Positions 3,373 to 29,937 of a stretch of DNA of 32,000 bases are shown in pieces. The position numbers and the translations under genes are program-made. A model generated the notes under the pieces. The model ran no database searches. It worked only from the letters and a program-made list of their open reading frames with translations, and had not been told where the DNA came from. Source of the stretch: Patescibacteria group bacterium (lineage in GTDB: Bacteria > Patescibacteriota > Minisyncoccia > UBA6257 > HR35); contig JAUQQN010000001.1 of NCBI GenBank assembly GCA_030549845.1, forward strand, positions 240,001 through 272,000. The letters run 5' to 3'. How positions within the stretch are numbered: the stretch's first letter is position 1; each line of letters begins with the position of its first letter.

Positions 3373-4458
3373 TTACTTAGCAATTTGTACAACAAATTCT
3401 TTTAAGACTAAATAAAACTTATTTAAATCTTCTTTATCTATCCATTCTTTATCTGAATGATGACCTCCACCTTTAGGTCTAATTAGAATAACAGGTATAT
3501 TTTTTTCTTTAAAAAATCTAGCATCACTTGAACCATGCGAAAAGGCATAGCCTGTTTCGATTTTGAATTTCTCTTTCGCTATTTTTGAAAATAATTTTAA
3601 ATAATAATTATTTCTTTCAACTTCATAAGGAGACCCTTCTACTAAATTTTCTATTTTTATTTTTCTAAATTTTTTTAACAAATTTTTAATTCTCTTAAGG
3701 ATTTTATTTCTCTGCTTAAGATCAATATACCTTATATCAATAAAAGCTTCTGCATAATTTGAAACTTGATTTGTTGCTTCTCCTCCTATAATTTTTCCTA
3801 TGTTTAATGTATTATGCCAATGGATTTTGTTTTTGCATGGTTCTTTAGGAAAAATTTTTGCAAGATTATTCAAAAATCTTAAAAGGTTTTCAATTGCTCC
3901 TTCTCCTTCCCAAGGTCTTGAACCATGTGCTGATTTGCCGTAGCTTTTAACTTTTAAATGCCAAACACCCTTGGCTTTGATTTCGAAATTCCAATTTTGA
4001 CCTCCATCTGGCAGAAAACAGATTTTACAAGAATAACCTTTATCTAAGATGGCTTTAGTTCCTTTAAACCCACCAATTTCTTCATCAGTTGTTATCATTA
4101 TTCCTAAATCATATTTTTTTAAATCTTGATTTAGTTCTTTTAGAAGCTGTAAATAACAAGCAATAGCAAATTTCATATCATATACTCCTCTCCCCAAAAT
4201 TTTCTTTTTTTCAATTTTTAATTTAAAAAGTTCTTCTGGTCCTGGTACTACATCAAGATGGGCAGATAATAATAATTTCGGCTTTTTTGTTTTGTGAGCA
4301 GTAATAAATAAAGATGGGTAATTATCAAAATTAAATTCTTTTATAAATACAGGTAATTTGTTAATTTCTTCTTTTATCCAATTAATTGCTTTCTTATTCT
4401 CTTCTTTGTTTTGGGGAATTGTTTTAAAAGAAATTAATTTTTGTAAAATTTCTAACAT
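3373..4458 (-). CDS. M20-family peptidase/deacylase (ArgE/DapE-like)
   Basis: Motifs SAHLDVVPG, GRGVYDMKFA and TTDEEIGG. I chose the ATG at 4458 (MLEILQKLISFKT) because the longer track ORF runs upstream through the neighbour's terminator hairpin. Confidence 0.75.
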   Translation of the reverse strand: MLEILQKLISFKTIPQNKEENKKAINWIKEEINKLPVFIKEFNFDNYPSLFITAHKTKKPKLLLSAHLDVVPGPEELFKLKIEKKKILGRGVYDMKFAIACYLQLLKELNQDLKKYDLGIMITTDEEIGGFKGTKAILDKGYSCKICFLPDGGQNWNFEIKAKGVWHLKVKSYGKSAHGSRPWEGEGAIENLLRFLNNLAKIFPKEPCKNKIHWHNTLNIGKIIGGEATNQVSNYAEAFIDIRYIDLKQRNKILKRIKNLLKKFRKIKIENLVEGSPYEVERNNYYLKLFSKIAKEKFKIETGYAFSHGSSDARFFKEKNIPVILIRPKGGGHHSDKEWIDKEDLNKFYLVLKEFVVQIAK

Positions 4459-4545
4459 GATTAAGTTATGTTTTTTCTCTATTATAGACCCTTCACGACA
4501 AAAGTTGGATTCTTTGTCTTTATAAAAAATTTTAACCAAAAATAA

Positions 4546-4572
4546 GGGGCGTGGAGTTCTTAACACGCCCCC
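4546..4572 (-). terminator. intrinsic terminator of the GC-rich ligase gene
   Basis: Stem GGGGCGTG (4546-4553) pairs with CACGCCCC (4565-4572). On the minus strand it is followed by TTATTTTTGG, 14 nt after the stop at 4586. Confidence 0.55.
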
Positions 4573-4585
4573 GACTTTCTTGGAT

Positions 4586-5434
4586 TTAGTGGGTCTTCCT
4601 CTTCTCTACAAAAACACGCATCACCTCCTTTATTATTTCTTGTATCCCGTATAGAGAGGTGGAGTCAAATACCCGAATTTCGATTGTTCCTAGACTCCAC
4701 CTCGGCCGGCACCACCACCATACACATCCTTCACTCACTAAATCACCAGGCTGGGAGGGACTCTTTAGATCCACCTCCCAGCCGTTTTCTTTTTTTCTGA
4801 TAAGGCGTGGGATAGAGCGGAAATGATTCACTACATCCTCCCATGTCTGAAACCGAGACCATTGTCCTGGCTGGGCTGGTGCCCTCCTAGGATCACACCA
4901 GCCCCACCAACATCTCGCTCTGTTCTTGCTGGCATACTCCGTAAAGTTAATGTTGAAATGATTTAACAACGTCAGCCCTTCCCACGACTGTAATAAACCG
5001 GGGAAAGAAATATGGACGTGAACAGAAGAAACTAGGGCCATCCGCAGAACTCCCCACCACCTCCTACCCACCTCTTTCTCAAGGGCCCTCCAAAGAATCC
5101 TATAGCGATCCTTTGGGGCCCAGAATTTCCGAATTTCATGCAGCTTCAAATTAATTAAGTTGGCATCAACTGGTACGAAGTGGATATCCACCTCGCCCAG
5201 CCTTTTTCTGGTCTCTTTTAAGACCAGAAAGTACTTCTCACTAAGTTCCTCCCAACTGGAGGAAGGATATATAGCCCACTCAATCTGGTGCCTGCCGGCA
5301 TCAGTTTTGATGATGCCGGCTCCAGCAACCTCTAGACCCTCGCCTACAGCTTCCCATACGTCCACGGGCTCGCCATTTTTATAGACGAACCCCTCCACTT
5401 CAATCCCTACAGTTAACTCTTTCGGCCACTTCAT
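4586..5434 (-). CDS. carboxylate-amine ligase, GCS2/YbdK (glutamate-cysteine ligase family 2)-like; short and Trp-rich
   Basis: 282 aa. The motif order GIEVEGF ... SVHVHISF ... RPRWSLGTIEIRVFDS parallels the E. coli YbdK motifs GIELEMQ / QHVHVG / RPSPHFGTVEVRVMDT (recalled from memory). A perfect SD GGAGGTGA (5441-5448) lies 6 nt before the ATG. There are 19 Trp in 282 residues. Confidence 0.6.
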   Translation of the reverse strand: MKWPKELTVGIEVEGFVYKNGEPVDVWEAVGEGLEVAGAGIIKTDAGRHQIEWAIYPSSSWEELSEKYFLVLKETRKRLGEVDIHFVPVDANLINLKLHEIRKFWAPKDRYRILWRALEKEVGRRWWGVLRMALVSSVHVHISFPGLLQSWEGLTLLNHFNINFTEYASKNRARCWWGWCDPRRAPAQPGQWSRFQTWEDVVNHFRSIPRLIRKKENGWEVDLKSPSQPGDLVSEGCVWWWCRPRWSLGTIEIRVFDSTSLYGIQEIIKEVMRVFVEKRKTH

Positions 5435-5460
5435 TTTAACTCACCTCCGTTTAGGGTTCT

Positions 5461-5602
5461 TTTTAAAATTAAAAGGGCCGGGTTGGCCCCGGCTGAAGTG
5501 ATATAAAATTTTTATTTTTAAACTAAATCACCTCAGCCGGAGCACCTCGGCCCAAAATAACAAACAAAACAACTGAATTTCTTTTTGTAAGCATTGTTTG
5601 TA
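5461..5602 (-). promoter_or_regulatory. structured GC-rich leader E1: mini-ORF, 14-bp hairpin and overlapping terminator-like hairpin with T-tract
   Basis: Long hairpin 5489-5502 / 5527-5540 with one G.U pair. GC hairpin within 5475-5493, followed on the minus strand by TTTTAATTTT. A 23-codon ORF spans 5594..5523. See findings. Confidence 0.4.
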
Positions 5603-5608
5603 AATAAT

Positions 5609-5637
5609 ACTATAATCAACAAATTTATTTTTGTCAA
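5609..5637 (-). promoter_or_regulatory. sigma70-type promoter for leader E1 and the ligase gene
   Basis: Minus strand reads TTGACA (5632-5637), a 17-nt spacer, then TATAGT (5609-5614). Confidence 0.45.
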
Positions 5638-5663
5638 GGGTTTATGAAATATTTTTAACAAAT

Positions 5664-6287
5664 TTAAATAAGTGTAAGTGATTTTAAATAATTTTCTTCT
5701 ATTTTATCCCAATTTACAACATTCCACCAAGCTTGAATATATTCATTTCTTCGATTTTGATATTTCAAATAATATGCATGTTCCCAGACATCTAAACCCA
5801 TAATCGGCAAATCTCCATTCATTAAAGGATTATCTTGATTTGAAAGTGAATAAACTTTTAATTTTTTATCTGGAGTTAAAACAAACCAGGCCCAACCTGA
5901 ACCAAAATGTTTTAAGGCTGTTTCGGAAAATAAATTTTTAAAATTTTCAAATGAACCAAATGCTTCATTAATTGCTTTCAAAATTTCTCCTTGTGGCTGA
6001 CTCCCTCCTGGTTTCATAATCTCCCAAAAAAGAGTGTGATTGGCGTGACCGCCGCCATTATTTCTTACGGTTGTTCTTATTTCTTCTGGCAACTGATTTA
6101 AATTCTTTAAAATTTCTTCTAATTCTAAATTATGAAATTCTGGGTATTTTTCTAAGGCTGAATTTAGATTATTAACATAACCTTGATGATGCTTAGTGTG
6201 ATGAATTTCCATTGTCATTTTATCAATATAAGGCTCCAAGGCATCATAGGGATATGTAAGTGGCGGTAACTCATACGGATATTTCAT
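5664..6287 (-). CDS. sod: Fe/Mn superoxide dismutase
   Basis: 207 aa. Contains [14 protein letters not shown] and [15 protein letters not shown], the metal-ligand motifs of the Fe/Mn SOD family. Confidence 0.9.
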
Positions 6288-7464: not shown

Positions 7465-8881
7465 TTAATTTATCTATTGCTTTATTTATTAATTCTAGGC
7501 TTTTTTCTTTCCCATAAATTAACATAATATCTATCGGAGGAGGAGATGCTTCTAAGCCTGTTAAGGCTACTCTTAATGGCCAATATGTTAAACCCTTGTC
7601 TTCGCTTAAGGTATCTAAAACCTGCTTGATAAATTCATAATTAAATTTATCCTCAGGAATATTCTTTATATTTTCTCTAACATTTATTAAAGAACTTTTT
7701 ATTTGATCAAAAGTATAATCTTTCCATATTAATAGCTCTTTTGGATAATCAAATTTTTCATATAAAAACTTCATGGTTTCGAAAATTTCTTTTATAGTAT
7801 TTGCTCTTTCTTTCCCAAGTTCTATTATTTTATAAGTAATTTCTTTTGGGTATTTATTTAAGTAATCTCTTAAATATTTTAGATACTCATCAGCTAAAAT
7901 GATTTTTTCAATTTCTTGTGAGGTTTTTTTCCTCAAATAAAATTTATTTAACCAAATTAATTTTTTTGAATTAAATACTGCCGATCTTTTTTCAACGTCT
8001 TCCAAGTTAAATTCTTTGATAACCTCTTCTATACTTATAATTTCTTTCTCTCTTTTAGGATGCCAACCTAATAATACCAAAAAATTTAAGATTGCTTCTG
8101 GTAAAAAACCTTCAGCTCTATATTCTTTTATACTCTTAGCCCCGTGTCTTTTCGAAAGCTTACCTCCTGCTTCACCTAAAATCAGTGGAATATGAGCATA
8201 AATAGGTGGTTTCCAATTCATGGCTTTATAAATTAATATTTGTTTAGGGGTATTTGGTATATGTTCAGCGCCTCTTATTACATGGGTGATTCCTTGATAA
8301 TAATCATCTACAGGGGTAGCTAAATGAAATAATGGTTCATTTTCTGATTTTGCAATTACAAAATCGCCTATTAATCTTAAATCATATTTAATTTCACCTC
8401 GCAATAAATCTTTAAATGTTAAAACTTGTTCTGGCACCTTTAGTCTTATTACATAAGGCACATTTCTTGAAAGTTTCTCATTTATTTCTTCTTTTGTTAG
8501 CTTGGAGCATGTTCCATCGTATCTTGGTGGTTCGCCTTTTGTGATTTGCTCAAGTCTTTTGTTCTCTAGTTCTTCTTTTGAACAAAAACACCTATACGCC
8601 TTTCCTTTATTTAATAATTCTTCAATAACTCTTTTATAAATTTCTATTCTCTCTGACTGAAATATAGGACCTTCGTCATAATTTATACCTAACCATTGTA
8701 GGCTTTCGATTATATCATCAACAAATTCTTTTTTTGACCTCTCTCTGTCTGTATCTTCTATTCTTAAAATGAAAACTCCTTTTTGGTTTTTAGCAAAAAG
8801 AAAATTAAACAGAGCAGTTCTTGCAGATCCCAAATGTAGATATCCTGTAGGAGAAGGAGCAAATCTTGTTCTTACAACCAT
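7445..8881 (-). CDS. gltX: glutamyl-tRNA synthetase
   Basis: 478 aa. RFAPSPTGYLHLGSARTALFN is the HIGH region and KLSKRHG is the KMSKS-type loop. Confidence 0.9.
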   Translation of the reverse strand: MVVRTRFAPSPTGYLHLGSARTALFNFLFAKNQKGVFILRIEDTDRERSKKEFVDDIIESLQWLGINYDEGPIFQSERIEIYKRVIEELLNKGKAYRCFCSKEELENKRLEQITKGEPPRYDGTCSKLTKEEINEKLSRNVPYVIRLKVPEQVLTFKDLLRGEIKYDLRLIGDFVIAKSENEPLFHLATPVDDYYQGITHVIRGAEHIPNTPKQILIYKAMNWKPPIYAHIPLILGEAGGKLSKRHGAKSIKEYRAEGFLPEAILNFLVLLGWHPKREKEIISIEEVIKEFNLEDVEKRSAVFNSKKLIWLNKFYLRKKTSQEIEKIILADEYLKYLRDYLNKYPKEITYKIIELGKERANTIKEIFETMKFLYEKFDYPKELLIWKDYTFDQIKSSLINVRENIKNIPEDKFNYEFIKQVLDTLSEDKGLTYWPLRVALTGLEASPPPIDIMLIYGKEKSLELINKAIDKLNDIQIS

Positions 8882-14107: not shown

Positions 14108-14126
14108 AGTACAGTTTTCTGCACCT

Positions 14127-14134
<8 letters not shown>
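14108..14134 (-). other. 3' strand of the 23S processing stem
   Basis: AGTACAGTTTTCTGCACCTCAGCAAGT is the reverse complement of 17057-17083 except for one position, which gives a G.U pair. Confidence 0.7.
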
Positions 14135-17056
<2,922 letters not shown>

Positions 17057-17064
<8 letters not shown>

Positions 17065-17083
17065 AGGTACAGAAAACTGTACT
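17057..17083 (-). other. 5' strand of the 23S processing stem
   Basis: ACTTGCTGAGGTACAGAAAACTGTACT pairs with 14108-14134 (27 bp). Confidence 0.7.
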
Positions 17084-20153: not shown

Positions 20154-20510
20154 TTATTTGGAGTATATAGGTTTGAGTTTCTTTTTGATCTTTTTATCTG
20201 AAATCTCTCTAATAAAGTATAATTTTGCTCTTCTTGTTTTAGTTTTTCCTAATATTTCAATTTTTTTAATCACAGGAGAGTGGTACAGATAAGTCTTTTC
20301 CAAATATTGACCAGCTGCTTTACCTCTTACTGTAAAGGTTTTATTCAATCTATTTCTATTTTTAACAGAAATTATAATACCTTCAAATGGAGAAACTATT
20401 TCCTTATCTCCTTCTTTAAAAATTTGCCAAACTTTTACAATCATTCCTGGTTCAATTTCTGGTAAATCTTTTCTTTTGAATTTTTCTTCTATTTTTTTTA
20501 TAACATCCAT
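20154..20510 (-). CDS. rplS: 50S ribosomal protein L19
   Basis: Starting at MDVIKKIEEKF..., the protein aligns with L19 through PGMIVKVWQ..., FEGIIISVKNR..., FTVRG... and YHSPVIKKIEIL. The track ORF's first 45 codons are read-through of two tRNA genes. Confidence 0.9.
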   Translation of the reverse strand: MDVIKKIEEKFKRKDLPEIEPGMIVKVWQIFKEGDKEIVSPFEGIIISVKNRNRLNKTFTVRGKAAGQYLEKTYLYHSPVIKKIEILGKTKTRRAKLYFIREISDKKIKKKLKPIYSK

Positions 20511-20512
20511 TG

Positions 20513-20585
20513 TGCCCCGGGAGGGATTCGAACCCCCGACCTCCTGCTTAAAAGGCAGTTGCTCTACCAGCTGAGCTACCGGGGC
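20513..20585 (-). tRNA. tRNA-Lys (anticodon UUU), no encoded CCA
   Basis: Reverse complement is GCCCCGGTAGCTCAGCTGGTAGAGCAACTGCCTTTTAAGCAGGAGGTCGGGGGTTCGAATCCCTCCCGGGGCA. Confidence 0.9.
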
Positions 20586-20587
20586 GT

Positions 20588-20659
20588 TGGACCGGGTGGG
20601 AATCGAACCCACAACCTCCGGTGTGCAAAACCGGTGTTCTGCCATTGAACTACCGGCCC
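20588..20659 (-). tRNA. tRNA-Ala (anticodon UGC), G3:U70 present, no encoded CCA
   Basis: Reverse complement is GGGCCGGTAGTTCAATGGCAGAACACCGGTTTTGCACACCGGAGGTTGTGGGTTCGATTCCCACCCGGTCCA. Confidence 0.9.
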
Positions 20660-20683
20660 ATTTATTAATATTTCATTATCAAT

Positions 20684-21967
20684 TTAGATTATATCAAAAT
20701 TTACATACTTAGTTAAGACCTCAGGAATTTTTATATGGCCATCTTTTGTTTGAAAATTTTCCATGATTGCTATTAATGTTCTTCCTATGGCAAAAGCAGT
20801 GCCATTCAAAATATGCACGTATTCAATTTTATTTTTTCTTTTAACCCTAATATTTAATCTTCGTGCTTGAAAATCTGTAGTATTTGAACAAGAATGTGTT
20901 TCTCTGTATCTATTTTCACTTGGAATCCAAGCTTCAATATCAAACTTTTCTGCAGCAGGAGGGCCTAAGTCGCCTGTACAAATATGAATAACTCTATAAG
21001 GTATCTTAAGTTTTTTCATTAAATACTCTTCTACACTTAGTAAAAATTTATGTTCTTCTACTGATTTTTCAGGTAAAGTAAAGGATACCATCTCTAGTTT
21101 ATCAAACTGATGTACTCTTAAAATTCCTCTTACATCTTTTCCATAACTACCAGCTTCTCTTCTAAAACATGTAGAAAACCCTATAAATCTAATAGGCAGC
21201 TCTTTTTCTTCTAAAATTTCATCCTTAAAATATGGTACAATAGAATGCTCTGCTGTTCCTACTAAGACCAAATTGTCTTCTGGAATTTTAAAAACTTCAA
21301 TATCTCCATCATCTATATATCCTAAGCCCCACATTATTTCTGGTTTAATCATTACAGGAGGGACTATAGGAATAAATGTTTTTAGCTCTATATTTAACTT
21401 ATTTTCTTCTATTATGTTTTTAATGGTTTCCGGGTTTGTTAATTCATCAAAAACGAATTTTACAATAGCAAATTCCAAAATTGCTAGCTTATTTTTAAGA
21501 TAACCAAATCTTGACCCTGATATTTTACTAGCTCTTTTTACATCTATAAGATCTAACTCTTCAGCTAAAGTCAAATAATCTTTCAATGAAAAATCAAATT
21601 TTGGTTTTTCGCCCTCTTCTTTTATAACAACATTATCTTCTTCGCTTTCTCCTATTGGCACCCAATCAAAAGGAGGATTTGGTATTTTCCTAGAAATTTC
21701 AAAAATTTCTTTTTCTAATTTTTCTATCTCTTCATCTAAAAACTTAATTTCTTTTTTCAGCTCTCTTAATTTAATTTTTTCTTTATCAGTCAAATTTTTA
21801 GTTGATTTAATTTTTAATTGATGTTTTAAATCGTCTCTTTTTCTTATCAACTTATTTTGCTTTTTTTTCTTTTCTATCAACTCGTCAATATTAACTTCAA
21901 TATTTTTCTTTTTACAGGCTTCTTTAAAATATTTGGGGTTTTTTAAAAGCTCTTTTAAATCTATCAT
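20684..21967 (-). CDS. serS: seryl-tRNA synthetase
   Basis: N-terminal coiled-coil arm and class II motifs FRREAGSYGKDVRGILRVHQF and GTAFAIGRTLIAIMEN. The start was chosen at MIDLKELLKNPKYF (21967). Confidence 0.9.
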   Translation of the reverse strand: MIDLKELLKNPKYFKEACKKKNIEVNIDELIEKKKKQNKLIRKRDDLKHQLKIKSTKNLTDKEKIKLRELKKEIKFLDEEIEKLEKEIFEISRKIPNPPFDWVPIGESEEDNVVIKEEGEKPKFDFSLKDYLTLAEELDLIDVKRASKISGSRFGYLKNKLAILEFAIVKFVFDELTNPETIKNIIEENKLNIELKTFIPIVPPVMIKPEIMWGLGYIDDGDIEVFKIPEDNLVLVGTAEHSIVPYFKDEILEEKELPIRFIGFSTCFRREAGSYGKDVRGILRVHQFDKLEMVSFTLPEKSVEEHKFLLSVEEYLMKKLKIPYRVIHICTGDLGPPAAEKFDIEAWIPSENRYRETHSCSNTTDFQARRLNIRVKRKNKIEYVHILNGTAFAIGRTLIAIMENFQTKDGHIKIPEVLTKYVNFDII

Positions 21968-21982
21968 TTTTATAATTATAAG

Positions 21983-22651
21983 ATGCAAAAGACAAAACTT
22001 CAAAAATTTTCTTTTAAAAATATACTTCTTATAACATTCTTATTGATCTTAATTTCTTTCTTTACTTTCTTAATATTCAGTCTTGATTTTGAAATAATAG
22101 AAAATAGCAAAATAATTGCCAAAGAGAATTTAATTTTATTTCTTCTAACTAAAAATATAGTAGCCAAAAATTTATTTGAACAAGAAGCTGACTTAATTAA
22201 GATAAATTATAAATTTGATTTTAGAAATTTCAAAATCTATGTAGAAAAAATCAAAGAAGAGCCTGTTGCTTTAATATGTTATAAAGATGATTGTTATTTT
22301 TTAGGAAAGCATTCTTACATATATAAAAAAAGAAATAGTTCCTATAAAAATCTTCTTCCAATAAAAAGTTACTATCCTATATATGAAAACTCTTATTTAA
22401 AACCGGAGTTAACTAATGCTTTGGTTTTTTTATTTGAATATTCAAACTTAAAATTACTGATTTTAAAAGAAATTAAAATACTTTCAAATTTTGATTTACT
22501 TGTCAAAACTAAAGATTTTTCTTTCCTCTTAGATCCTCATAAAAATGTAAAAAATCAATTAAATAAACTTTCTTTCTTTATAGAAAACTACAAAGACACA
22601 AATTATTCCTTAATAGATTTAAGAATAAACCACAAAATTTTCTTTAAGTAA
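21983..22651 (+). CDS. hypothetical membrane-anchored protein
   Basis: 222 aa with one N-terminal transmembrane helix (ILLITFLLILISFFTFLIF). It diverges from serS with only 15 bp between the two start codons. Confidence 0.45.
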   Translation: MQKTKLQKFSFKNILLITFLLILISFFTFLIFSLDFEIIENSKIIAKENLILFLLTKNIVAKNLFEQEADLIKINYKFDFRNFKIYVEKIKEEPVALICYKDDCYFLGKHSYIYKKRNSSYKNLLPIKSYYPIYENSYLKPELTNALVFLFEYSNLKLLILKEIKILSNFDLLVKTKDFSFLLDPHKNVKNQLNKLSFFIENYKDTNYSLIDLRINHKIFFK

Positions 22652-22923: not shown

Positions 22924-23742
22924 TTAAATTAATTTTTCTCTTAAAAAAACTATAATTTTATCTACTAGATCAGGGAAGATCTCAAACAAATCTGTACCGT
23001 GCGCATCTGAATCTAAGGTTATCAAAGTAGAAGAGGGGGTTACATTTTTAAATAAATCTAAAGAGCTTGCGCTTTGGAGATCTTTAATACCAGTAATAAC
23101 CAAAATTTTGGAATCCATCTCTTTTTTTAAAAAATCTTCTATTTTAATACCTCTATAGTTCAGCCCAGGTGAAATTAAAACTACTGCTTTTATTTCTGAA
23201 TTTAAAGAAAGAAATTGAAGTGCTATATTAGCTCCTATGCTTGCTCCTATTAAAAATTGATTTTCGATGGGGAATCCTCTTTTTTTTAAATATTCACTAG
23301 CTGCTTTTACATCATAGATATATTCTTGGTGTTCTTTATCTGTAAAATTCTTATAATTTAAAACTCCCTTTACGGAATTTATACTTTCTCCATGGCCTCT
23401 GAAATCTATAGCTAAAACAGAGTAACCTGCATCCTGTAATCTTTTTGCCAATTCACTATAGCTTTCTTTTATTGCTGGCATCATATGAAGTAAAATTCCA
23501 GCATATTTACTTTCTTTTGCTTGATAAAAATGACCTATTATTTTTACTCCGTCTTCTGTTTGAAATTCTACTTTCTCGAAATTATTTACTTTTTTTAAAG
23601 CCTCCTCTTTAGTTGTTTTCTCTTCTTTAATTTTTGCTTCTTTTAGTGAGGTTGATAAATATTTATTAAAAAAAATCAATATCACACCTAAAATCACTAC
23701 TACAGAAATTATTAAAAGAACCAAAATATTTATTCTAACCAT
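22924..23742 (-). CDS. membrane-anchored alpha/beta hydrolase
   Basis: 272 aa with an N-terminal transmembrane helix, DFRGHGES, and the nucleophile elbow GASIGAN (GxSxG). Confidence 0.75.
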   Translation of the reverse strand: MVRINILVLLIISVVVILGVILIFFNKYLSTSLKEAKIKEEKTTKEEALKKVNNFEKVEFQTEDGVKIIGHFYQAKESKYAGILLHMMPAIKESYSELAKRLQDAGYSVLAIDFRGHGESINSVKGVLNYKNFTDKEHQEYIYDVKAASEYLKKRGFPIENQFLIGASIGANIALQFLSLNSEIKAVVLISPGLNYRGIKIEDFLKKEMDSKILVITGIKDLQSASSLDLFKNVTPSSTLITLDSDAHGTDLFEIFPDLVDKIIVFLREKLI

Positions 23743-23749
23743 AAATTTG

Positions 23750-23824
23750 CGGGGGCGACGGGATTTGAACCCGCGACCTCAGCCTTGACAGGGCTGCGCG
23801 CTAACCAGGCTGCGCCACGCCCCC
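23750..23824 (-). tRNA. tRNA-Asp (anticodon GUC), no encoded CCA
   Basis: Reverse complement is GGGGGCGTGGCGCAGCCTGGTTAGCGCGCAGCCCTGTCAAGGCTGAGGTCGCGGGTTCAAATCCCGTCGCCCCCG. Confidence 0.9.
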
Positions 23825-23980
23825 ATTTTGTTTTTCAAGTTTTTTGTATTACTTATTAATTATAAACGAAATTTCATTGTATCTTTTAATAACATCAAAT
23901 TTTGATATAATATTTATTAAGAAATAATTCAAACTAAATTAGCAATTTGATGAAGCTTAACAAAAATATAAACTACATAC

Positions 23981-24051
23981 CGCGGGGTGGTGGAGTAGTA
24001 CCACGCGGGTCTCATAAGCCCGAGGCGCCGGTGCAATTCCGGCCCCCGCAA
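23981..24051 (+). tRNA. initiator-type tRNA-Met (CAU) with non-canonical D- and T-loops; possibly a tRNA-like element
   Basis: Sequence is CGCGGGG-TG-GTGG-AGTAGTA-CCAC-G-CGGGT-CTCATAA-GCCCG-AGGC-GCCGG-TGCAATT-CCGGC-CCCCGCA-A. It has the C1xA72 mismatch and GGG/CCC in the anticodon stem. The T-loop reads TGC rather than TTC and the D-loop has no GG. Confidence 0.7.
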
Positions 24052-25743
24052 CACACAAAATCATTTACTTTTATAGAAGTTTTATCTTCAATTTTCATTT
24101 TAGGAATTTTAATTAGTGTTTTAATAATTGTTTTAAAGCCATCGACTATATTTGCTTATTTAAGAGATAAAAAAAGATTACATGATTTAAATTTGTTGGA
24201 ATTTTCCATTAAATCAGCTTATTTGGAAAACCCTGAATTATTTTTATCTCTTGCTACTAATACTATTTATATTTCCTTACCCGACGAATCACCATTCTGC
24301 AGTAAATGGCTATCTAAATTACCGCCTTTACCTTCTGGGTGGTATTATAAATGTTCAAATGATCCTACAAATATAACCTCTGGTTGGTTGCCTTTAAATT
24401 TGAGTAAAATAGGGCTTTTTAGCTTAAAAAAGCTACCGATAGACCCAATTAATAATGAAAATTTTTATTATAGTTTTGTAATTTCTAATAATGGCTTTGA
24501 GATTACATCGAGGCTTGAGAAGGAAATAGGATCGGATTCCATAGCTGGAAATGATGATGGAGATAATTTATATTTTTATGAAGTGGGGACAGACAAAAAA
24601 GCCATGCCCCAAATGGCCCAAAGGGATCCTTATTTAGTACTTTATTGGAGTTTTGATGAAGGTAGCGGTTTTTATGCATACGACTATTCAGGAAATCAAC
24701 AAACAGGGGTCCTTCGCAATTTTAGAGAAGTAATTTCTGATATGGAATCATTAAGTAATTGGTATGAACCAAATTATTATATTACTTTAGATTCTATAAA
24801 TAAAATAAGTGGAAATTTTTCATTAAAATTAGATTTAGAAAATAACCAACCCCTGCCAAATACTACTTATACAATTTCTTATATTCCGCCTTCTCCTATC
24901 GATTTTTCTAATGCATACGATGTAGCTTATTACCTAAATTACAACACTTCTACCAATTATATATCTTCTGCTCGGTTAATTATTTATGATCAAAACAATA
25001 ATTATAGATATTGGAATATAGGAGTTAATAGGTATTGGCGTTTGTACTCATATTCTTTGTCTTATTATTCAGGACAAACCCCAATTCCTCCAAATCTTTC
25101 TTCTATTGCAAAAATAGAATTTCAATTCAAAACAGGAAGTAGTGTTGGTCCTTTTTATATTAATTTAGATTTATTAGCTTTTACCAAAGATACAAGTCCT
25201 AGATGGGTTGATGGTCGCGTTGGAAAAGCTATTGAATTTGACGGGATTGATGACTACGTTTATTTTTACACAACTTCATCTATATTTATGCAATTCAACA
25301 ATTCTAACACATCAATGACTAGCTGTTTTTGGTTAAAAAGGTATAGAACATTAATATGGGAAATACCCCTAAGAAGAGACCCTAATGAATTTTGGTGGGT
25401 TTCTATTTCTAGTAGTAATAACTGGATATATTTTTATACGGCTGGTAGTACTGCAATTAGAACTGATCTTCCTAATGTATTAGATAGAATAAATATATGG
25501 TACCATTTATGTGTTGTTTATGATGTAAACCAATCTGATGGTTATAGATCTAAAATTTATTTAAATGGCCAATTAGTAGCAAGAGGTAATCCAGTACGTG
25601 CTTCTGGGGGTACTTATTCTAGTTTTTCTATAGGCGCAAGGACTGATGGAGCGCTTGCGTTTAAAGGAGTTATAGATGAAGTAAAAATTTACAATAAAGC
25701 GTTAACTTCCGATGAAATTTTGCACCTATATCAAAGTTATTAA
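24031..25743 (+). CDS. type IV pilin-like protein with C-terminal LamG/concanavalin-like domain; start codon uncertain
   Basis: Prepilin-type motif KS-FTFIEVLSSIFILGILISVLIIVL. The C-terminus reads GKAIEFDGIDDYVYF...IYLNGQLV...FKGVIDEVKIYNKALTSDEI (Laminin_G_3-like). The only in-frame canonical start close upstream of the motif is GTG 24031, which lies inside the tRNA gene. Confidence 0.6.
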   Translation: MQFRPPQHTKSFTFIEVLSSIFILGILISVLIIVLKPSTIFAYLRDKKRLHDLNLLEFSIKSAYLENPELFLSLATNTIYISLPDESPFCSKWLSKLPPLPSGWYYKCSNDPTNITSGWLPLNLSKIGLFSLKKLPIDPINNENFYYSFVISNNGFEITSRLEKEIGSDSIAGNDDGDNLYFYEVGTDKKAMPQMAQRDPYLVLYWSFDEGSGFYAYDYSGNQQTGVLRNFREVISDMESLSNWYEPNYYITLDSINKISGNFSLKLDLENNQPLPNTTYTISYIPPSPIDFSNAYDVAYYLNYNTSTNYISSARLIIYDQNNNYRYWNIGVNRYWRLYSYSLSYYSGQTPIPPNLSSIAKIEFQFKTGSSVGPFYINLDLLAFTKDTSPRWVDGRVGKAIEFDGIDDYVYFYTTSSIFMQFNNSNTSMTSCFWLKRYRTLIWEIPLRRDPNEFWWVSISSSNNWIYFYTAGSTAIRTDLPNVLDRINIWYHLCVVYDVNQSDGYRSKIYLNGQLVARGNPVRASGGTYSSFSIGARTDGALAFKGVIDEVKIYNKALTSDEILHLYQSY

Positions 25744-26564
25744 TCTTGAAACTTTGCTAATTTTAGGAAGTTTTTAAAAATCATAGCAGTTAAAATTGGG
25801 CCTGTTCCATTTGGAGTAGGTGTGATTAAGAAAGCTTTATTTTTGAGTTTATCAAAATCTATATCTCCATAAATTTTTCCACTTTCGATTTTATATCCAA
25901 AATCTATAAGAATAGCATTTTTTTTACATTCATTTACAAAATTAGGAATACCTTCCCCGCTTACAATAATGTCTGAGATTTTAAAAAACTTTTCCTTGTT
26001 TTTAGTGGTTTTTCTTACAATAATAACAGTCGATCCTTCTGTTGCAAAATAGTGAACTAAGGGCTTCCCGATTAGTTTAGAATATCCTACAACAGAAACA
26101 ATTTTGTTTTTAAAATCTAAAGAAAATTTTGCTTTTAAAAAATCAACGGTTTCTACAGCCGGTGGTCTTATGATGTATGAATCTGTAAAAAATTTACCTA
26201 AGTTTTTAGAAGATAGGCAGTCTACATCTTTTTCAGGTGGTATTGAATTTAAAAAATATTGGGTTTTAAATTTGCTTGGCAAAGGAAGTTGTACTATAGC
26301 TCCATGAACTAAATCTGATTTTACTATTTGATTGATATATTTTCTCAAATTTTTCCTACTTATACTTTCATCAACTTCGTAAATTCTAAAATCTATTTCT
26401 AGTTCTTTAGCAAATTTTTCTTTTATTTTTAAAAATTTAACTTTTTCTTCTGATTTACCGATTAAGAATCCTACCAATCTCAATTTTCCTAATTTATCTC
26501 TTTCTTTTCTTAAATCTTCTATGATTTCTTTTGCTAGTTCTTTTCCATTGATTATTATAGCCAT
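25740..26564 (-). CDS. folD: bifunctional methylenetetrahydrofolate dehydrogenase/cyclohydrolase
   Basis: 274 aa. The N-terminus MAIIINGKELAKEI, LPLP and GxSxxxGxP-like VVGYSKLIGKPL match the FolD family pattern. Confidence 0.8.
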   Translation of the reverse strand: MAIIINGKELAKEIIEDLRKERDKLGKLRLVGFLIGKSEEKVKFLKIKEKFAKELEIDFRIYEVDESISRKNLRKYINQIVKSDLVHGAIVQLPLPSKFKTQYFLNSIPPEKDVDCLSSKNLGKFFTDSYIIRPPAVETVDFLKAKFSLDFKNKIVSVVGYSKLIGKPLVHYFATEGSTVIIVRKTTKNKEKFFKISDIIVSGEGIPNFVNECKKNAILIDFGYKIESGKIYGDIDFDKLKNKAFLITPTPNGTGPILTAMIFKNFLKLAKFQD

Positions 26565-27841: not shown

Positions 27842-28285
27842 ATGACGTCGAAAAAAGTTTTATTTGCTTGTTTTACAATATTTTTGATATTTACTAGTTT
27901 TGTCCTGTCACCAACTAAAGCAGACATTGAACCTTTGTATTTTGATGAAACTGTATTCGAAAATTTAAAATTTAAATTAAGCAATTCAACAAAGAAAATT
28001 TTTATTGTTACAGTTACAGGCTATTCTTCGAGTTATGACGAAACTGACGAAACGCCATATATAACTGCAAGCGGTGATTTTGTAAATGATGGGATAGCAG
28101 CATCTAATTTTTTGCCTTTTGGAACAAAAATTAAAATACCATCATTATTTGGAGATAAAGTTTTTATTGTAAAAGATAGGATGAATAAAAGATATTATTT
28201 TAGAATAGATATTTGGTTCCCAACAAAAGAAGAGGCTTTGAATTTTGGTATTCATTATAACGTACCTATAGAAATAGTTGATTAA
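27842..28285 (+). CDS. secreted 3D-domain (RlpA/MltA-like double-psi beta-barrel) protein
   Basis: Signal-like N-terminus. VTVTGYSSSYDETDETPYITASGDFVNDGIAASNFLPFGTKIKIP...VKDRMNKRY fits the 3D domain. Confidence 0.7.
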   Translation: MTSKKVLFACFTIFLIFTSFVLSPTKADIEPLYFDETVFENLKFKLSNSTKKIFIVTVTGYSSSYDETDETPYITASGDFVNDGIAASNFLPFGTKIKIPSLFGDKVFIVKDRMNKRYYFRIDIWFPTKEEALNFGIHYNVPIEIVD

Positions 28286-29937
28286 GTTAAAGTACCTGCA
28301 ACTCTTTCTACTTCTTCTATTGTTGTTATTTGTTTTAATGCTTTTATAAGTCCTGCTTGTTTTAGGTTTATAAACCCATCTTTAATAGCTTGTTCTAGAA
28401 TTGCGAATTCAGATGGTTTTTCATATATAATTTTTGCCATATTTTCTGTAATCTTCAAAAGCTCAAATATAGCAACCCTTCCTTTGTAACCTAAATAAAG
28501 ACATTTTTCACAACCTTTAGCTTTAACTAATTTTATATTCTCTAAATCTAGATTTTCTAAAACCTCTTTAGGGACAGTTTTTATAGTGTTTACTATAATA
28601 TCTTTTAATTTATCATCTGGTTCAAATTCCTCCTTACAATAATTACATGCCCTTCTTAATAATCTTTGAGCTATTACTAACCTTAACGCAGGTGGTATTA
28701 AGGTTTTTTCCACCCCTAAATCGATAAGTCTTGGAATTGCTCCTAATGAATCATTTGTATGTAAAGTTGATAAAACTAAATGACCTGTTAACGAAGCATG
28801 AATTGCGATTTCTGCTGTTTCTTTATCCCTTATTTCTCCTACGAGAATTACGTCTGGGTCTTGCCTTAAAATTGATCTTAACCCATTTGCAAATGTATAA
28901 TTTTCAGCTTCATTAACTTGGGTTTGCGTAATTCCTTCTAATTTATATTCTATTGGATCTTCTATTGTGATGATCTTTATTTCTGGTCTTTTAATTTTAT
29001 TTAATATTGCATATAAAGTAGTGGTTTTTCCTGACCCAGTTGGCCCGGTATTTAAAATTAAACCATTTGGTTGCCTTATATAATATTCAATTATTTTTTT
29101 ATCATAATCTTCCAAACCCAAGCTTTCCAAGGGCAACATTATTTTTTCTATATCTAAAATTCTCATAACAATGGTTTCATCATAACTACTTGGAATAGTG
29201 CTTACTCTGATTTCTATGTTTTTTTTACCTAAATAAATGGAGAATCTTCCATCTTGTGGTTTTTCTGTAATATTTAAATAAAGCCCAGCAAATAATTTGA
29301 TTCTATTTTTTAAGAGGCCATATATTGATTTATTAAAATTTGCAATTTCATACAAAATTCCGTCAATTCTTAATTTAACAACTATATTTTTCTCTGTTGG
29401 TTCTAAATGAATATCAGAAGCATCAAATTTAATAGCTCCACCAACTAAATAATCTAAAATATCAAGTGGGTTTTCTTTTTCGAGTTCTCTTAAAATTTTC
29501 TTTAAATCTTCTTTAACCTGAAGAGAATTTAAAATATTATTTAATTTTTCTTGATCAATTTCTAGAATTTCTGTATATTTAACTTTTTTGGTTTTAATAT
29601 ACTTATACTCTTGCCAGGCTTTTTCTAGGCTTCTTTTAGAAACCACTCCTATTTCAACTATAAAATCTTGTTTCTTAAGTTCGTCTAAGAATTTTTTCAG
29701 CTCTTTATCTAATGGATTGAGCGCTCCGATTATTAATTTTTTCCCATATTTTTCAATGCCTACTATATTTAACTTTTTTGCTATATCTTCTGGAATTATT
29801 TTTAATGCATCTGGATCAACTGGATGAAATTTTAGGTTAAAATATTTTAATTGAAGCATGGAAGCTAATCTTTGTGCTAAGCTTTCTTCTTCCTCTTCTT
29901 GTAATTTATTTAAAAATTCTTGTAATTCATCACTCAT
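28282..29937 (-). CDS. pilB: type II/IV secretion ATPase (PilB/GspE family)
   Basis: Walker A GPTGSGKTTT, Walker B ILVGEIRD, His box LVLSTLHTN and the Cys cluster CNYC...CEKC. The start was chosen at MSDELQEF (29937). Confidence 0.85.
   Translation of the reverse strand: MSDELQEFLNKLQEEEEESLAQRLASMLQLKYFNLKFHPVDPDALKIIPEDIAKKLNIVGIEKYGKKLIIGALNPLDKELKKFLDELKKQDFIVEIGVVSKRSLEKAWQEYKYIKTKKVKYTEILEIDQEKLNNILNSLQVKEDLKKILRELEKENPLDILDYLVGGAIKFDASDIHLEPTEKNIVVKLRIDGILYEIANFNKSIYGLLKNRIKLFAGLYLNITEKPQDGRFSIYLGKKNIEIRVSTIPSSYDETIVMRILDIEKIMLPLESLGLEDYDKKIIEYYIRQPNGLILNTGPTGSGKTTTLYAILNKIKRPEIKIITIEDPIEYKLEGITQTQVNEAENYTFANGLRSILRQDPDVILVGEIRDKETAEIAIHASLTGHLVLSTLHTNDSLGAIPRLIDLGVEKTLIPPALRLVIAQRLLRRACNYCKEEFEPDDKLKDIIVNTIKTVPKEVLENLDLENIKLVKAKGCEKCLYLGYKGRVAIFELLKITENMAKIIYEKPSEFAILEQAIKDGFINLKQAGLIKALKQITTIEEVERVAGTLT

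Follow-up and report, generated by a model that had tools for sequence, protein, structure and literature searches.

Organization of the Locus

The DNA analyzed here, hereafter the window, is a stretch of 32,000 nucleotides from a Patescibacteria group bacterium (assembly GCA_030549845.1, contig JAUQQN010000001.1, positions 240,001 to 272,000 of the forward strand). Its plus strand contains a gene for an initiator-type tRNA (tRNA-fMet), immediately followed by a gene for a pilin-like protein with a C-terminal LamG domain, hereafter the pilin. The pilin gene has no start codon between the tRNA gene and the segment encoding the mature protein, and its reading frame is open across the entire tRNA gene, back to an ATG at position 23950 and a TTG at position 23947. 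It is the only frame that is open through the tRNA. A first-pass annotation of the locus had proposed a GTG within the T-arm of the tRNA as the only plausible start codon of the pilin and had linked this start to the unusual elbow of the tRNA. The evidence discussed below argues for a genuine tRNA, whose elbow varies independently of the pilin, and for a pilin start that overlaps or precedes the tRNA gene, tentatively at ATG 23950. The features of the locus are listed in Table 1.

Table 1. Features at and around the tRNA-fMet/pilin locus (positions are those of the window).
Feature	Position	Strand	Remarks
Initiator-type tRNA, anticodon CAT, C1xA72	23981..24051	+	RF00005 match, ARAGORN, covariation
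ATG 23950 with nine further codons (together MKLNKNINYI), plus the initial base of a CCG codon straddling the tRNA 5' end	23950..23980	+	Proposed present-day start, in the tRNA 5' leader
GAGG 24022-24025 and GTG 24031-24033	24022..24033	+	tRNA positions 43-46 and 53-55; in frame, 5 nt apart
Junction CAC ACA AAA TCA (H T K S)	24052..24063	+	No start codon of translation table 11; 15 nt missing relative to other lineages
Mature pilin-LamG protein	24064..25743	+	FTFIEVL and hydrophobic helix (~24064-24135), conserved middle part, Laminin_G_3 (~25249-25719)
TTGATATAAT, putative promoter of a tRNA-fMet/pilin transcript	23902..23911	+	Extended -10-like box (TGnTATAAT); sequence match
tRNA-Asp(GTC), divergent neighbor	23750..23824	-	α/β-hydrolase ATG (23742) 7 nt beyond
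folD	25740..26564	-	Convergent with the pilin gene
T2SSE-family (PilB/GspE-like) ATPase	28282..29937	-	Identical gene of L007 and L093 matches PF00437; pilus-machinery context

The LamG domain of the pilin is recognized by PF13385 (residues 434-590, E=1e-19, 71.6 bits vs. a cutoff of 27.6). The match to the N_methyl motif PF07963 (E=0.0026, 17.7 bits) is under the cutoff of 21.2, which homologues do pass. The region around the predicted cleavage site consists of a leader ending in KS, followed by FTFIEVLSSIFILGILISVLIIVL, in which the F-x-x-x-E pattern and the hydrophobic helix are found. Leaders of the homologues, which are annotated as prepilin-type or ComGC/PulG-like proteins, are 5-23 residues long and end in Ser, followed by FT[LF][IV]E. 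Thus, position -1 is occupied by Ser, not Gly, throughout the family.

The Initiator tRNA

At the position where the first-pass annotation had recognized an initiator-type cloverleaf, ARAGORN predicts a tRNA-Met(CAT) (23981-24052). The RF00005 model of Rfam gives 58.3 bits for 23981-24051, against a threshold of 29 and scores of 59-74 bits for the four other tRNAs in the window. The acceptor stem (CGCGGGG/CCCCGCA) contains a C1xA72 mismatch, which is non-canonical in the Rfam alignment; among the initiators of relatives, the base opposite A72 is C, A, G, or U. The anticodon loop is CTCATAA, the D-loop AGTAGTA lacks GG, and the T-loop TGCAATT has a G at position 55, whereas the four other tRNAs have GG in their D-loops and TTCGAAT, TTCAAAT, or TTCGATT as T-loops. 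In all these respects, the earlier description was accurate. The GGG/CCC run that it reported in the anticodon stem is indeed present (G28:C42, G29:C41, and G30:C40) but occupies pairs 28-30:40-42, shifted by one from the canonical 29-31:39-41, and the pair 31:39 is U-G; across related initiators with G55, this pair is GC (15 sequences), UG (7), or GU (5). The D-stem contains U11:A24, unlike the A11:U24 of initiator tRNAs, which is found in 22 of 27 related G55 initiators. CCA is not encoded, and the same holds for the tRNA-Lys and tRNA-Asp genes of the window.

In an alignment of 27 distinct G55 initiators, 99.6% of the cells of the cloverleaf are paired, and compensatory changes are found in 10 pairs across the D-, anticodon, and T-stems. 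One such change is found at 51:63 in the T-stem, from C51:G63 in the window to A51:U63 in locus L002. Except for this pair, the tRNA-fMet is the same in syntenic relatives with proteins that are just 60-80% identical. Nearest-neighbor energies for 23981-24051 favor a rod-like fold with pairing between the D- and T-arms (-39.2 kcal/mol, vs. -32.9 kcal/mol for the cloverleaf), whereas E. coli tRNA-fMet folds as a cloverleaf under the same model. The rod was rejected as the real structure, as its D/T pairings are not kept across relatives.

The elbow of the tRNA is composed of A18 G19 and U54 G55 C56, instead of the canonical G18 G19 and T54 Ψ55 C56. Judging from the distribution of the two loop types, the two apparently missing elbow elements are a single coupled change, from G18/U55 to A18/G55, in which G19:C56 is kept. 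Coupling rather than decay is indicated because G55 goes together with an AG-type D-loop and U55 with GG: among the distinct tRNAs in the fetched loci, the D-loop ends in AG-N-A (AGYAGNA) in 46 of 63 G55 tRNAs, whilst GG is present in 130 of 132 U55 tRNAs. Elongator tRNAs that neighbor G55 initiators in the same genomes are canonical. G55 initiators were found in 34 GTDB species, about half of them Patescibacteria, in a scan of one genome per species with a pattern for a variable loop of 5-6 nt, outside which the window type (4 nt) and the genome of the window itself fall. Another 51 G55 initiator loci were found in a metagenome scan. Given the covariation and the conserved variant class, the possibility of a decaying or pseudo tRNA was rejected. 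From these comparisons, 23981-24051 is a real initiator tRNA of a functional variant class, and the best explanation is that it serves as the working initiator tRNA of this Patescibacteria (Parcubacteria-like) bacterium.

The proposed link between the odd elbow and the start of the pilin was not borne out. The same tRNA is present in front of pilin genes that have an ATG of their own (L002, L004, L083, and L053) as well as without any pilin behind it (L096, L097, L061, and others), and G55 varies with the A18-type D-loop, independent of the pilin start. Relatives do have the tRNA followed by a pilin gene with a start codon of its own, an observation that the first-pass annotation had named as one that would speak against its proposal.

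Loss of the Start Codon of the Pilin Gene

As already noted in the first-pass annotation, no in-frame start codon is present between the tRNA and the FTFIE motif, and the next canonical one is TTG 24193. Besides a start of its own, the pilin of the window lacks the short basic leader that immediately precedes the cleavage site in relatives, where it reads MKNKS, MKNVS, or similar. In four related lineages, tRNA-fMet is followed by a spacer of 7-11 nt, an ATG, and a pilin of the same family. The spacer is AATTTTTATTT in L002, L004, L042, L060, L069, L080, and L090, with MKNKS as the leader and F[AT]FVE at the start of the mature protein (FTFVK in L090). It is AATTTCT in L083, where MKNVS precedes FTFVE, and AAGCCATT in L053 and L068, where a 23-residue leader precedes FTLIE. 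In alignment A1, the window is short of exactly 15 nt directly after the tRNA (AATTTTTATTTATGA, i.e., the spacer and the ATG). Thus, as read from this alignment, the lineage of the window has lost the pilin ATG by a 15-nt deletion.

The ATG-less junction is identical in six assemblies, i.e., the window and L006, L007, L093, L094, and L095 (NCBI JAVZIH010000057 and Logan SRR21619494, SRR21619495, SRR27730019, and SRR27730044); an assembly artefact was rejected on this basis. The five further assemblies are 99.1-99.9% identical to the window (the strains differ by 0.06-0.9%), and among the metagenome matches the ATG-less junction was not found outside this population. L006 (GCA_038998185.1, JAVZIH010000057.1) is 99.94% identical to the window, yet it belongs to a metagenome-assembled genome (MAG) labeled Candidatus Aenigmatarchaeota archaeon, a label that is probably due to a binning error. 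The closest named relatives according to SerRS are Minisyncoccia, Parcubacteria, and Patescibacteria MAGs. L006 also carries the substitution T24065G, which changes Phe(+1) of the pilin into Cys. This substitution was considered as the source of a usable new ATG but was rejected, since that ATG is out of frame.

The loss of the 15 nt looks like streamlining that overshot. Spacers shrink readily in this lineage, and a second tRNA gene, for tRNA-Ala(CGC), has also been deleted after the pilin gene. In relatives (L001, L002, L004, and L005), the latter gene directly follows the pilin stop codon, ahead of folD, to form a tRNA-pilin-tRNA unit, which is absent in the window; here, the stop codon of the pilin overlaps that of folD (25740-25743). 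Insertion of a mobile element at the 3' end of the tRNA was rejected as an explanation, as the gene order is that of relatives.

The pilin gene itself has not been retained in all related lineages. In L061, L064, L077, L078, L079, and L091, tRNA-fMet is directly followed by tRNA-Ala(CGC). In L049, a C-terminal remnant of the pilin (..LTAEEIQALY; ~310-420) is found between these two tRNAs. In L096 and L097, the relatives with the most similar SerRS (85 and 81%, respectively), folD comes after tRNA-fMet and there is no pilin gene (L096 2650-2715; L097 7037-7041). Furthermore, the gene is frameshifted at an A-run in L004 (~5770) and L005, and in L090 it contains several frameshifts and the substitution E5K.

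Selection on the Pilin Gene

In the part of the gene that encodes the mature pilin (1,680 nt), a census of single-nucleotide polymorphisms (SNPs) among the six strains yielded 20 synonymous and 12 non-synonymous changes (pN/pS 0.16), whilst the synonymous share predicted by neutrality is ~21% (binomial p=3.7e-7). The corresponding numbers are 16:9 for SHMT (pN/pS 0.15), 9:8 for FolD (0.23), 17:5 for PBP (partial; 0.08), and 16:1 for T2SSE (0.02). In none of the six strains is there a stop codon or frameshift in the 598 codons of the pilin. As all six strains share the deletion, the SNPs in the pilin arose after it. Thus, the pattern of substitutions indicates that the pilin has remained under purifying selection since its ATG was lost and, hence, is very probably translated. 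Since the pilin is selected and no start is available after the tRNA, its start would have to overlap or precede the tRNA gene. In this sense, the suggestion of a start embedded in the tRNA is partly supported, although, as discussed below, the ATG in front of the tRNA is a likelier start than the GTG within it.

The Position of the Start Codon

Annotation pipelines disagree on the start of the pilin. Gene callers place it at ATG 23950 for P0001, P0036, P0037, and P0038, with a product that begins with MKLNKNINYIPR, whereas GTG 24031 is the start in the NCBI annotation of L006 (P0002).

Several lines of evidence bear on this choice. All 20 large ORFs in the window (e.g., those at 21983, 21967, 8881, 29937, 3354, and 1463) start with ATG, and only one of them is preceded by a clear Shine-Dalgarno sequence. 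In about eight of the 20, TATAAT is found 6-10 nt before the ATG, which suggests widespread leaderless translation. The two candidate starts also differ in accessibility. The energy required to open the RNA from -18 to +12 is 7.3 kcal/mol for ATG 23950, but 21.0 kcal/mol for GTG 24031 and 21.5 kcal/mol if the RNA has been cut by RNase P; for 20 genes of the window, it is 7.6 ± 2.2 kcal/mol, with a maximum of 13.5. Furthermore, an upstream in-frame ATG that is connected to an open tRNA frame without an intervening stop codon is rare, as it was found in only three of 60 other upstream contexts. In L096, the pilin-less closest relative, the frame of ATG 23950 contains two TAA codons within the block ACAAAAATATAAACT, which is read in another phase in the window due to small indels. 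Based on the exclusive use of ATG, the scarcity of Shine-Dalgarno sequences, the accessibility, and the rarity of an open upstream frame, ATG 23950 is ranked first and GTG 24031 second. The claim that the latter, together with GAGG, offers the only plausible start is not supported.

Some observations plead against a start at ATG 23950. The resulting leader of 38 residues is longer than any in the family, where the maximum is 23, and the tRNA segment contains many codons that this genome seldom uses (CGG, CCG, GCG, and CCC; 1-4 per thousand). ORFs also cross GC-rich tRNA genes by chance; the rplS ORF, for example, runs via tRNA-Lys into tRNA-Ala, and in that case a proper ATG is present after the tRNA. 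Cleavage by RNase P and at the 3' end of the tRNA would destroy the message, and the yield of protein may therefore be low. As to the selection signal, transition bias would somewhat raise the synonymous fraction expected under neutrality, and recombination with unsampled strains that have retained the ATG could partly explain the SNP pattern. No SNP is present within 23877-24064, so that the upstream codons contribute nothing to the selection signal. Finally, one strain carries F(+1)C, and the pilin is dispensable in sister lineages: L096 and L097 lack it, L049 has kept just a remnant, and in L004 and L090 it is frameshifted. With these points taken into account, we favor, at not quite even odds, the explanation that the pilin starts at ATG 23950 and is read through the tRNA after the 15-nt deletion removed its own ATG.

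Among the alternatives, a start at GTG 24031, with GAGG 24022-24025 as the Shine-Dalgarno sequence, fares best. Both elements are present as originally described, in frame and with a spacing of 5 nt, and the NCBI pipeline selected this start for P0002. It would generate an 11-residue basic leader (MQFRPPQHTKS), which is within the family range, and would require fewer rare codons than ATG 23950. However, GAGG and GTG are constant parts of the tRNA in all relatives, including those in which the pilin has a separate ATG, and, hence, neither of them evolved for the pilin start. The genome seldom uses Shine-Dalgarno sequences, and GTG is the start codon of none of the 20 large ORFs. Moreover, the site is located in the T-stem and variable region of the tRNA, and the ~21 kcal/mol needed to open it is six standard deviations over the genome mean. 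Altogether, this start seems unlikely.

The pilin gene could also be a fresh pseudogene, which lost its start codon by the deletion and is not translated anymore, the ORF being intact merely because the loss is recent. The confinement of the ATG-less junction to one 99%-identical population, the loss or decay of the same gene in sister lineages, and the F(+1)C variant in one strain are consistent with this scenario, but 32 SNPs that postdate the deletion and show a strong synonymous bias, like those in housekeeping neighbors, are not, and neither is the absence of stop codons and frameshifts from 598 codons in six strains of a genome of 27-31% GC. It is, therefore, considered quite improbable. 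Least probable of all, with only a slim chance, is a start downstream of the tRNA, at ATA 24073 within FTFIE or at TTG 24193, yielding a protein without a cleavable prepilin leader: although ATA is a permitted, rare start codon of table 11 in a region that opens at 4.4 kcal/mol, and a cut at the 3' end of the tRNA would give a short 5' end as at the other tRNA-to-mRNA junctions of the family, ATA is a very weak start codon and its use would remove F1-T-F, which is conserved in all homologues, TTG 24193 would drop the entire hydrophobic helix and, hence, the export signal, and all 20 large ORFs start with ATG.

A Proposed Route From tRNA Leader to Pilin

If translation starts at ATG 23950, the following scenario can be envisaged. 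In this family, 0-11 nt separate tRNA genes from the ATG with which a protein gene in the same orientation begins, and in the ancestral layout the pilin gene was one such gene. The 5' end of its mRNA was probably generated by processing of the tRNA 3' end, which would have left a nearly leaderless mRNA. The deletion of 15 nt then took away the spacer and the ATG whilst purifying selection on the pilin persisted, and an ATG found 31 nt before the tRNA, where the RNA is AU-rich and unstructured, may have taken over as the start.

At present, a single transcript would run from ~23918 across the tRNA and the pilin gene. Ribosomes might load at AUG 23950 in close pursuit of the polymerase, prevent the tRNA from folding, and decode it as 24 codons. 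This would yield a prepilin with a basic leader of 38 residues (MKLNKNINYIPRGGGVVPRGSHKPEAPVQFRPPQHTKS), which would insert into the membrane and from which a prepilin peptidase would cut the leader before Phe1 of FTFIE. Transcripts that are not translated would fold instead, after which RNase P and a 3' nuclease would excise the tRNA and, thereby, sever the ORF from its start. Each transcript would thus give rise to either a tRNA or a protein. Slightly more tentatively than the start itself, it is proposed that the complete, essential initiator tRNA gene is also translated, with 71 nt that specify 24 residues of a prepilin leader destined for removal, that one segment of RNA alternates between tRNA precursor and coding sequence, that the pilin output is set by a race between ribosome and nuclease, and that this situation arose by deletional streamlining in a lineage that uses tRNA excision to generate leaderless mRNAs.

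Two suggestions made earlier for this locus can be placed in this scenario. Mutually exclusive fates of the RNA, i.e., tRNA processing or translation, are implied by a start that overlaps or precedes the tRNA, although the competition itself is an inference. The alternative idea, that of a tRNA-like 5' module recruited for processing, fits the ancestral state, in which the pilin ATG is located 7-11 nt after the tRNA, as well as two other tRNAs in the window that have an ATG 2 and 7 nt behind them, respectively.

Putative Promoter and Genes Abutting tRNAs

A candidate promoter for the proposed transcript is the extended -10-like box listed in Table 1. The same 10-mer recurs upstream of the SHMT gene and, at 20688-20697 on the minus strand, upstream of the tRNA-Ala/tRNA-Lys/rplS unit, and TTTTGATATAAT precedes the tRNA-fMet gene of L002. 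A generic scan of 23700-24300 for σ70 promoters and terminators revealed nothing useful on the plus strand, the box being uncalled for want of a match to a -35 element. From the position of the box, a transcription start near 23918 is plausible, which would place ATG 23950 ~31 nt into the transcript.

The pilin of relatives is not the only protein that is encoded directly behind a tRNA. The rplS ATG (20510, minus strand) is located 2 nt after tRNA-Lys (A73 at 20513) in a unit that falls within 20508-20699, and the hydrolase ATG follows tRNA-Asp at a similarly short distance (Table 1). Both junctions are kept in relatives (L077, L053, L002, and L004), with a spacing of 0-8 nt; for the individual genes, distances of 0-2 nt (rplS) and 1-7 nt (hydrolase) were noted. 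Thus, at the pilin, rplS, and hydrolase genes, a protein gene is located on the same strand too close to a tRNA for a promoter in between, an arrangement that is conserved in relatives. Because CCA is not encoded and the ATG abuts the tRNA, a cut after the discriminator base would be expected to leave nearly leaderless mRNAs.

Comparison With Known Systems

In the metY-rimP-nusA-infB operon of E. coli, the transcript begins with an initiator tRNA, which RNases excise, and continues into protein genes (PMC6511841). Likewise, the tRNA-fMet of the window would head a transcript with a protein gene. The tufB operon is another case in which tRNA and mRNA are co-transcribed. The protein genes of both operons are equipped with separate ribosome-binding sites and start codons at a good distance from the tRNA. 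At the pilin locus, by contrast, the ancestral spacing is 7-11 nt, and the coding sequence in the window lacks a start behind the tRNA and necessarily extends into tRNA sequence.

In mitochondria, tRNAs serve as punctuation marks: their excision defines the ends of mRNAs, which are leaderless. Similarly, protein genes in the window abut tRNA genes, as in the case of rplS (2 nt), the hydrolase (7 nt), and the pilin of relatives (7-11 nt). Unlike a mitochondrial genome, however, the window belongs to a bacterial chromosome of the free-living type that has promoters of its own, and processing is here predicted from sequence. Furthermore, excision of the tRNA in front of the pilin in the window would remove a start rather than create one.

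The pilin resembles the precursors of type IV pilins and pseudopilins, which have a class III signal, in its basic leader, the F-T-F-I-E sequence with Glu5, the hydrophobic helix of ~20 residues, and the presence of a T2SSE ATPase gene nearby. It differs from type IV pilins in the Ser at -1, in its LamG-containing C-terminal part, and in the proposed 38-residue leader, which would be largely encoded by the tRNA. Among the window ORFs that were scanned, which were part of the total, no prepilin peptidase was recognized. The tRNA, in turn, shares with E. coli tRNA-fMet an identical acceptor stem, the CAU anticodon, a G:C-rich anticodon stem, A73, and A58 in the T-loop, but not A18/G55, U11:A24, U-G at 31:39, the 4-nt variable loop, and the absence of an encoded CCA.

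A coding frame that is obliged to include tRNA sequence is thus unmatched by the metY operon, mitochondrial punctuation, or the pilin systems compared here. A search of the literature on ORFs overlapping tRNAs yielded no described bacterial protein frame that runs through a whole functional tRNA gene on the same strand, and to our knowledge no such example has been described. If the pilin indeed starts at ATG 23950, it would represent such a case. It would then illustrate to what extent genes may overlap when genomes are streamlined and provide a natural system in which translation and tRNA processing compete for one RNA.

Independent Leads

The tRNA-abutting start codons and the A18/G55 elbow are leads that are separate from the pilin start. 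Wherever that start may be located, the tRNA genes that abut start codons suggest that leaderless mRNAs are produced by tRNA excision, and Shine-Dalgarno sites are nearly absent in this Patescibacteria group. A literature search for leaderless translation in Patescibacteria yielded nothing directly relevant. One ORF, at 5434 on the minus strand, has a strong GGAGG sequence in front of it, the only one in the window; this ORF lacks a Pfam match and is located in a stretch of higher GC content (4001-6000) that may be foreign DNA. Apart from this stretch and the rRNA, the GC content of the window is 22-32%, and its genes are ordinary bacterial housekeeping genes.

Also regardless of the pilin start, the coupled A18/G55 pair replaces the nearly universal G18/U55 contact of the tRNA elbow, mostly in initiator tRNAs. 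A literature search on tRNAs with G55/A18 and on initiator tRNAs of the Candidate Phyla Radiation found no description of it; given the limited coverage of this search, this is weak evidence of novelty. The combination of G55 with A18-G19 was observed in many Patescibacteria initiators (loci L008-L092, e.g., L010, L018, L022, L033, and L035), in the Bacteroidota isolate Telluribacter humicola, and in Dormibacterota and Chloroflexi MAGs. It is also present in a few elongator-type tRNAs, i.e., those for Pro, Val, Ile, Leu (with a short variable arm), Tyr, His, and Cys, with non-initiators found in L017, L027, and L034. In L008 and L026, G55 is found together with a normal GG D-loop. In the 27 aligned initiators, the pyrimidine at position 20 could pair with G55 (U-G in 21 and C-G in four sequences).

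Many metagenomic initiators of the G55 class have CCCATAA as the anticodon loop, in which C33 replaces the near-universal U33, and are followed by a canonical CAT tRNA (L044-L051, L055, L059, L062, L065, L067, and others). In L016 (~7637-7720), the initiator tRNA gene is directly followed by a tandem copy of its own 3' half (..CCCCGCAACCCGAAGGTCGCGGGTGCAAATCCCGCCCCCGCAACCA), which resembles the trace left by an element that integrated at this tRNA. Finally, the 23S rRNA gene of the window (14123-17066, minus strand) stands alone, with no 16S, 5S, or tRNA gene adjacent to it within the window, and the yebC ATG (14078) is located 44 nt past its 3' end.

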